Positions 54,401 to 57,481 of a stretch of DNA of 64,000 bases are shown one piece after another. The position numbers and the translations under genes are program-made. The notes beneath the pieces were generated by a model that worked only from the letters and a program-made list of their open reading frames with translations, had not been told where the DNA came from and did not search any database. Source of the DNA: Octopus sinensis (Eukaryota); assembly GCF_006345805.1 (NCBI RefSeq), contig NC_043012.1, positions 7,874,001-7,938,000 on the forward strand. Reading direction: 5' to 3'. Positions within the stretch are counted from its first letter, which is position 1, and every line of letters begins with the position of its first letter.

Positions 54401-57400
54401 CCGCTGGCTAAGCAAGCAGGCCAACAGAAGAAAAAGTGAGAGAAGAGTGGTGAAAGAGTACAGCAGGGATCACCACCCCCTGCTGGAGCCTTGTGGACCT
54501 TTTAGGTGTTTTCGCTCAATAAACACTCACAACGCCCGGTCTGGGAATCGAAACTGCGATCCTACAACCGCGAGTCCGCTGCCCTAACCACTGGGTCATT
54601 GCACCTCCATATATATAAATTATATGTAGAAAAATACAAACTGGGACAAGAACGTAAAACATTTAGAAGACGATACAAAAAACGGATGGGACATTCGAAG
54701 CCTTCAATCTTCAGTCAACAACCGGATCATCCTAGCAATTTCGGGATATCTTTTATATACCTGAAACAGCTGTAAGACTACCTTTCTCTTTATAAATGTC
54801 CTAGAAATTTTACACTGCCTTGGCTTTGTTGTCTCATTTTACTTAACACACACACACACACACATGTATGTGTGTGTATGATAAATGATAGAAAATGGAA
54901 TGAACAACATTCTTAATTTTAAATTACTACAATTGTTTCAATACATTTTTACACCTGCAGTACATTGGTGAAATGTTATGTAATCATTATCATGCATCAA
55001 AGGTGTAAAATGGGCTTCTTCATGTGATAGTTTAAATAAGTCCCTCAGAACTCTACAGATACTATGAAATTCCTGATGTATAGCCAGTAGCCGAAGCATT
55101 TCCACTATTTGATGACATCAGATAGCCAATGACTGTCGACAAGCTTTGCATAGCATTTTACAAGATTTTTACCTGAATCTTTCTTTATATCTATATCTAT
55201 CTATATATATATATATATATATATATTTGTATGTATACTATGTAAGTATGTGTCTGCCAATTTTACATAGCTATTTACATTAATGTGTATCTCCTAATTG
55301 TGTAAAAATTCTTTTCTTTAGCAGGTAACTGTGTAAGTTAATGTTGCTCTGTCAATGCCTTGAGTTATCATCTGTTTCAGGTTGTCCCGGGGGCTTTCAG
55401 GTGGTTACAGGTGATGGCCCCTTGCCTATGGCAATATTTGAACTGCTCGAGTACATTGTACATGAGGTAATCAAGTACAAGTTTTTGACCAGGCGCGCGC
55501 CCAATTGTTGCCGTTATGTTGAGTGAATTATCTGAAATAGTAGTCTCGATTCAGTGAACCGTATACATATTGTCTCTTTATTATTATTTTTTTTTGTTTA
55601 TTTAAGAAAAAAGAAAGAAAAAGTTGGGTTGTGGTGTGGGATGGCTCAGAATCCAAATATTCAGAAACTAATTTGATATATATGTATATATATATATATA
55701 TATATTATATATATATATATACATACATACATACTTACACATTCACATGCATACACACACACCATATTGACATCTATAAATTCATATTATTATTATTATT
55801 ATTGGCCTGGCCCCCGTGCCGGTGGCACATAAAAAGCACCATCCGATCGTGGGCGTTTGCCAGACTTGTCTGGCACGTAAAAAGCACCCACTACACTCAT
55901 GGAGTGGTTGGCGTTAGGAAGGGCATCCAGCCGTAGAAACATTGCCAGATCAGACTGGGCCTGGTGCAGCCTTCTGGCTTCCCAGACCCCAGTTGAACCA
56001 TCCAACCCATGCTAGCATGGAAAGCGGACGCTAAACGATGATGATGATTGGCAGAATAAGTGGAGAATTGGATAAAATGTCTTGCAGTACTTAGTCACTG
56101 GTACTTTATGTTCCAAGTACTTTAGTTGATAAAATAAAGTACCAATCAAGCAGTGAGAGGTGATATAATCCACTGCTCCACTCCCCTGAAATTCCTGGCT
56201 ATTTGCCTATGTTAGAAATTGTTATTGTTGTCGTTGTTAAGGTGGTGACCTGGCAGAGTTATTAGCATGCTGGGAAAAAAGTTTAGATAGTATGAGAGAC
56301 CAAGTCGGAATTTGAACTCAGCATATGAAAGCATATGAAATACTGCTAAGCATTTTGCTTGGCATGCTAACGAGTCTGATAATAATCCTTTCTACTATAG
56401 GCACAAAGCCTGAAATTTGCAGGGGGAGGGGATTAGTTGATTACATTGACCCCCAGTGTTTCACTGGTACTTAATTTATCGACTCCAAAATGATGAAAGG
56501 CAAAGTTGACGCTGGTGGAATTTGTACTCAGAACATTGCAGCAGACAAAATACTGCTAAGCATTTTACCTGGCGTGCTAACGAACTCGTTGCCTTAACCC
56601 TTTAGTATTTAAACTGGCCATATCCGGCCAAAAGTATTCTGCCTGTTTTATGTTCAAACTGGCCAGATCTGGTCTCTCACACCAACCCTACAATGTCGTT
56701 TTAAAAATTAACAGCTTCCTCATCAAAATCTCATAGCTACAAGATAATGCATGATTAATTCAAAACAATGTGGATAAAAAGGGATTAATTTTGGCAGAAT
56801 AATGCGAACACTAAAGGGTTAATAATAGTAATAATGATAATAATAATAATAATAATAATAATAATAATAATAACGATGGTGATGTCAATACTCTCACAAA
56901 CTCTTCCACCTCTTAAAATCCCGCTGAATATTAAAAAAAATAGAATACAAAAAAGACGGGGGGGAGGAAAGAAAAAAAAATGACTGAGATCTGTTAGTAG
57001 TGCTGTTTTGTTGCTTGGTACAAACAAAGCTTTTTCTCAAACTAACCAAGGGGGCTACTACCTTGGAAGGATCAACTGGCCCCATTCCATGACTTCCTTA
57101 TAGCTATTGCTGCTGCCACCACCACCACCACCACCACCACCGCCTGTACTACTGTACAGCTCCATCTCTGGATTCAGATTGTCTGGACTCTATAAAAGAG
57201 AAACAAAACAAAAACAAACAAAAAAAACCCAGCCTGCTTGTTTATTGTTTTTTTTTGTTTTTTTTTTGTTTTTTATTATGTGTGTGTGTGTGTGTGTATG
57301 TGTATTATTATGCGTGTGTTGTGTCTATTCTCTTTGCTCTGTTTATATTAAGTTGCTATTTTTTTCTGCTTTTTTCTTGCCTTCAGATAGCCGAAGTAAC

Positions 57401-57481: not shown

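Follow-up and report, generated by a model that had tools for sequence, protein, structure and literature searches.

The MEK1/2 gene of Octopus sinensis carries two tandem copies of its eighth exon, here called 8A and 8B, each of which is spliced singly into an in-frame mRNA. Judging from the sequences of the copies, we hold with moderate confidence that the two resulting kinases are likely to differ in the regulation of the loop beside helix alphaG. The stretch of DNA analysed (the window, 64,000 nucleotides) contains exons 1–8 of the gene on its + strand; exons 9–11 lie 13–24 kb beyond it. The gene belongs to the MEK1/2 family: the MEK activation loop, insert and alphaG are all present, and the best PDB matches are all MEK1, dSOR1 or MEK2. 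Human MEK1 (PDB 7mfd chain B, with 39 other matched sequences) is orthologous (E 5e-164), and its alphaG helix, residues 309–320, is nearly identical.

Exon 6, encoding the DFG motif and the activation loop (49767..49893, + strand), is spliced to exon 7 in four of four RNA-type runs. Exon 7 (51935..52124, + strand; 190 nt, phase 0 to 1) encodes alphaF and the beginning of the MEK insert, and its tail is joined both to 8B and to 8A; its peptide matches, with 100% identity, a protein annotated in both Octopus vulgaris and O. sinensis. The coding part of exon 1, a basic N-terminal peptide, spans 428..495 on the + strand (end approximate), and its translation matches the N-terminus of protein P0002. 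Intron 1 measures approximately 40 kb (window 428–40684), and the annotated isoforms of 365–368 aa (P0121–P0123) start in exon 2, without the basic peptide.

Exon 8A (55381..55466, 86 nt) and exon 8B (57387..57481, 95 nt), both on the + strand, are bounded by AG and GT, run from phase 1 to phase 0 and have lengths of 2 modulo 3. They are separated by a repeat-rich GT–AG intron of 1920 nt (55467..57386, + strand). Over the last 19 codons there are 11 synonymous and four non-synonymous codon differences, and 39 of the last 60 nucleotides are identical. The initial annotation had described two homologous exons of equal phase with intact splice sites, approximately 1.9 kb apart and with many synonymous differences; all of this is borne out, and the peptides that it quoted are correct. 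Inclusion of either copy alone yields a full kinase. As had also been foreseen, the frame is lost in the other two cases: a TAG (57462..57464, + strand) is reached only when both copies are included, and skipping of both (7–9) leads to a stop in exon 9, which starts in phase 0 beyond the window (G000:C16:7951207-7951268).

The copies are homologous, adjacent, of the same phases and in one gene, as expected of a tandem duplication. In the interval from exon 7 to exon 9, tblastn gave no third copy, and searching the O. sinensis genome at the protein level returned 8A and 8B as the only copies of exon 8, in a single MEK1/2 gene. This rules out a second gene or an assembly duplication as the source of the copies, a possibility that the initial annotation had raised against itself.

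Evidence of splicing came from 15 listed RNA-type runs, of which seven were examined (X1, X2, X3, X8, X9, X4 and X13). None of the runs is on record as RNA, and their RNA nature was inferred from the presence of precisely spliced contigs; as assembled contigs rather than raw reads, they carry no expression levels and no tissue labels. A contig joint from exon 7 to 8B is present in four of four runs from four studies (X1, X2, X3 and X8, at depths of 54, 32, 78 and 21); this form, the one seen most often, is RefSeq isoform X1 (P0002). The spliced form 7–8A–9 was found in one of three further runs, as a contig of run X9 at depth 11.8 whose loose ends are the tail of exon 7 and the head of exon 9; it matches RefSeq isoform X2 (P0124). 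Overall, spliced 8A is seen in one of the seven runs, four have nothing but unspliced low-depth contigs over 8A, and two have essentially none. In X1 and X8 the unspliced contigs over 8A are below depth 3, and X4 and X13 are likewise unspliced over this stretch. Among the joints listed for X1, X2, X3 and X8 there is neither 7–8A nor 8A–8B. The 8B–9 joint is taken from protein models (P0002, P0004 and P0125) rather than from contigs.

Both spliced forms thus exist, and 8B looks the commoner. That most contig sets lack spliced 8A does not show the exon to be silent. The alternative use proposed for the pair is supported by these contigs, and the objection that transcripts might never include 8A is answered by run X9. 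One contig of run X2 is interrupted where exon 7 ends (52124); depth drops there from 49.5 to 32.3 with no cover of 8A, perhaps reflecting 7–9 skipping.

The two copies differ in the strength of their donors. That of 8A (GTAATC, 55467..55472, + strand) is weak, without a G at position +5, and that of 8B (GTACGT, 57482..57487, + strand) is strong. Comparison across loci gave the same pattern: the A donor is GTAA without +5G in seven of seven loci outside an annelid-like group devoid of 8B, and the B donor is GTAYGT in six of six. In the B-less group +5G occurs in 22 of 22 distinct A donors; these belong to a single set of related loci and should not be counted as separate events. Within the limits of this one lineage, the +5G agrees with the idea that the donor stays weak only as long as 8A is optional. 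The 8A-only annelid-like loci, with strong donors, are L012–L042 except L014 and L033; L029 and L038 contain partial extra 8A copies upstream.

A/B pairs were compared in annotated proteins of 19 species, comprising a cephalopod, a chiton, bivalves, gastropods and Lingula. The 60 residues upstream are identical between the forms in 18 of the 19 pairs and the 40 downstream in 16; the pair of Arion differs on both flanks and may represent two genes. Mean pairwise identity over the 19 species is 0.77 for A and 0.64 for B, making 8A the better conserved copy. A DNA run of organism E keeps 55304–55570 with only two exon differences (55439 and 55442), both of which are third-codon synonymous by our reading of the frame. 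Synonymous and non-synonymous differences between the last 19 codons of 8A and those of annelid- and bivalve-like loci number 8/1, 8/1 and 11/0. By these codon counts, which are not a dN/dS model, both copies are under purifying selection across species. The three Pomacea, Babylonia and other proteins P0146, P0026 and P0172 have an 8A longer by 16 residues, through an apparent repeat of the acceptor and 5' part.

The search of relatives, suggested earlier as a means of dating the duplication, placed the pair in other molluscs, annelids, a brachiopod and bryozoan-like DNA. A-type sequence is found in annelid proteins (Lamellibrachia, Ridgeia, Dimorphilus, Capitella and Helobdella) and, in more divergent form, in Lineus. 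The A-then-B tandem is present on five metagenome contigs, two annelid-like (L008 and L011), one bivalve-like (L014) and two others (L046 and L048). All five have an open phase 1-to-0 acceptor, and the closest match to exon 7 of L046 is that of Bugula (81%). In a peptide tree of 29 columns, 15 of 16 A rows fall on one branch with weak support (89/75), and the B rows are interspersed with those of ecdysozoans and deuterostomes; in sequence, 8B resembles the single exon 8 of other animals. No A-type sequence was seen outside Lophotrochozoa in limited sequence searches; one of these, with the 8A region of Lingula and 15 scored candidates, added only Capitella and no A-type sequence from flatworms, ecdysozoans or deuterostomes. 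By these comparisons the exon pair is probably Lophotrochozoa-wide. The simplest, though unproven, reading is one early duplication in Lophotrochozoa; a single exon would then have been duplicated before molluscs, annelids, brachiopods and bryozoans split.

In the annelid-like group mentioned above, a B-exon profile gave no match in any of 15 intervals from 8A to exon 9, and both controls were found. To judge from these sequences the group has lost 8B, and 8A alone can apparently do the general job. Approximately 70 nt before exon 9, L020:5983-6012 (also L018) reads FDLLKIIVDQ followed by an in-phase GT; it could be an 8B remnant but scores -1.6 bits.

The weak donor of 8A and its splicing in one of seven runs might suggest a fading relic, rarely spliced, and the proteins listed for O. 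bimaculoides, Argonauta, Patella and Owenia include no A model, an observation on annotation and not on genomes. Conservation largely refutes this reading, which we regard as hardly credible: change in 8A is mostly synonymous, its frame and splice sites are intact across phyla, and it is the sole exon 8 of one annelid-like group. The decay of 8A in related species, which would have spoken against the original proposal, is thus not what we observe.

Aligned to human MEK1, exon 8 corresponds roughly to residues 292–320. According to the available part of a recent study (10.64898/2026.03.13.710243), the MEK1 helix 309–320 binds ERK via A309, I310, F311, L314 and V318, the F311A mutant cannot be phosphorylated by BRAF, and E312, D315 and E320 lie on the charged face of the helix. 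The hydrophobic face (A309, I310, F311, L314 and V318) is identical in octopus 8A and 8B. In sequence, the fixed differences between the copies are position 306, position 315 and the loop. Position 306 is L or M in 19/19 A exons and R in 17/19 B exons; position 315 is E in 18/19 A and D in 18/19 B. In the loop, R or K occurs in none of the 19 A exons, Arg-x-Ser in none of the A exons versus 13 of the 19 B exons, and S/T-P in none versus seven. The octopus 8B lacks an exact Arg-x-Ser, like five other B exons. The initial annotation had noted in 8B a serine-rich stretch with an SP site lacking in 8A. The absence from 8A holds in all 19 A exons; the SP site itself is not conserved, being limited to those seven B exons and absent from the B exons of Argonauta (P0003) and of a cephalopod-like sequence (P0004).

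The proline-rich loop of MEK is flexible and has been implicated in scaffold binding. It carries S298, a PAK1 site, and T292, a site of ERK feedback, as described in the parts available of PMC10605237 and PMC2172784. In human MEK1 the segment, with T292 and S298, exists once, whereas the octopus has it in two spliced versions. AlphaFold2 models of both isoforms, built with 27 and 38 sequences, have pLDDT below 50 in the variable loop (residues 301–314 and 301–315) and for this reason say nothing about the fold of the 8A loop. The first part of the octopus insert is predicted to be helical (residues 271–292), a difference from human MEK1.

In line with the altered RAF/KSR coupling proposed in the initial annotation, it could be argued that the chief effect of the swap is on binding to RAF, KSR or ERK at the rim of alphaG, by D315 to E, the main change in the helix, and R306 to L. 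Positions 306 and 315 are fixed by copy across phyla. In the accessible portions of the two sources, D315 belongs to the residues touching ERK1 N274/K276 by cryo-EM (10.64898/2026.03.13.710243) and is linked to B-Raf R671 by a salt bridge in simulations (PMC9068654). We nevertheless consider this reading unlikely. E315 is also found in the single-exon MEKs of Brachionus (rotifer), Gnathostoma (nematode), Oscarella (sponge) and Apostichopus (sea cucumber), so that E315 alone is unremarkable, and the hydrophobic RAF- and ERK-binding face is the same in both octopus copies. Because of this shared face, the switch more likely alters the regulation of the loop than docking itself.

Under this preferred reading, a change in loop regulation, 8B would be the default exon of ancestral character, with a strong donor, a basic residue at position 306 and often Arg-x-Ser where human MEK1 has the PAK site S298; that the loop serines of 8B are phosphorylated is assumed from human MEK1. 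8A would be a regulated minor exon whose weak donor comes into use only with the help of a splicing factor. The loop of 8A, with neither basic residues nor S/T-P and with a conserved hydrophobic/acidic pattern, may render MEK-8A insensitive to loop phosphorylation and give it a different surface beside alphaG. A further possibility, which we put forward tentatively, is that the lophotrochozoan switch provides a second MEK that escapes both PAK-type and feedback phosphorylation, with a conserved docking loop of its own, one gene doing what is split between MEK1 and MEK2 in vertebrates. If so, neurons of Aplysia or octopus could set the duration of the ERK signal by exon choice.

Both products exist in RefSeq exactly as automatic X1/X2 models of O. 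sinensis (XP_029646578.1 and XP_029646579.1), and Lingula likewise has automatic X1/X2 MEK1-like models (XP_013381691.1 and XP_013381692.1). Such mollusc and brachiopod entries are predicted only, and the literature found does not recognise them as a conserved exon pair. No description of a MEK exon 8 pair was found in the full-text literature, a scope that leaves aside subscription journals and bioRxiv supplements. A catalogue of 236 human exon substitution events due to tandem duplication (PMC8373072, in the part available) includes MAPK14 and MAPK8, with exon origins in Vertebrata and Chordata; MAP2K1 and MAP2K2 have no occurrence in its supplement. The exons of p38-alpha (MAPK14) and JNK1 (MAPK8) are, like those of octopus MEK, tandem-duplication-derived substitutions in the C-lobe of MAPK-pathway kinases. 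The duplicated exon of MAPK14 covers the alphaG region. Because kinase tier, gene and lineage all differ, the MEK pair is independent of these two. The MEK pair is apparently undescribed, within a well-known class of exon pairs (p38-alpha, JNK): an ordinary mechanism in an important place.

MEK is the bottleneck of RAS–ERK signalling, and the swapped segment comprises the RAF- and ERK-binding helix and a loop with regulatory phosphosites in mammals. The retention of a two-version MEK in several phyla implies a control point invisible to work on vertebrates and flies, and studies of mollusc MEK with one cDNA may have covered only one of two kinases. The system can be tested in Aplysia, oysters and octopus, and the B-less annelid-like group constitutes a natural experiment.

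Several known mechanisms of mutual exclusion were compared with the locus. In JNK-type U12/U2 hybrid exclusion, a U12-type splice site lies beside one copy; this finds no support here, as the donors of exon 7 (GTGATT), 8A and 8B are all of the ordinary U2 type. In steric exclusion of the tropomyosin type, the branch point of the second exon lies at most about 50 nt from the first donor and a long stretch is free of AG. The 1920-nt intron and a last AG 34 nt before the 8B acceptor make this unlikely, in agreement with the initial annotation, and exon ends are 307–2015 nt apart in six loci. The Dscam-type docking site and selector depend on conserved competing base pairing within introns. No long-range RNA pairing was shared in a comparison of five segment pairings in each of six loci, with 20 shuffles each; two of 30 pairings beat all shuffles, both in L008 only.

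Nonsense-mediated decay (NMD) generally acts when a junction lies at least 50–55 nt after the stop. Junctions follow the stop at 17, 79 and 125 nt in the double-inclusion product and at 3 and 49 nt in the double-skipping product, so that double inclusion fits NMD and double skipping, with its last junction at 49 nt, is borderline. Of the two bases for exclusion suggested earlier, NMD therefore stands for double inclusion, with this reservation for double skipping, and RNA structure finds no conserved pairing in its favour in the six loci compared. Exclusion may be leaky, with by-products cleaned up afterwards, because such by-products exist as gene models: one annotated model with both copies (P0126) and a skip model (P0128) in O. 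vulgaris, and a skip model in Tubulanus (P0042). Exclusivity would likely arise from donor competition and removal of out-of-frame products rather than from a physical block.

These annotated by-products would also suit an exon pair that mainly sets the dose of MEK, competition between the copies producing out-of-frame, degraded transcripts and the proteins being near-equivalent. The unspliced contigs over 8A in four of seven RNA-type runs, and the occurrence of each copy alone in some lineage or annotation, are compatible with such a role. We find it improbable, since a poison exon would need neither copy-specific 8A residues kept across phyla nor a conservation of 8A exceeding that of 8B, and the in-frame 7–8A–9 transcript exists.

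Some short motifs were observed around the two copies. The synonymous codons GCC ATT TTT GAG and TTA GAT of 8B (57443–57466) are shared by the window, L008, L011 and L014 and possibly form an exonic splicing element. A stretch resembling CCAGG...GCCCAA lies 20–45 nt after the 8A donor (55490–55512) and in L008 at about 7492–7510, and is not clear in other loci. On either side of 8B there are ACTAAC sequences, with a TGCATG downstream of it (57041–57046, 57565–57570 and 57860–57865), candidate QKI and RBFOX motifs, respectively.
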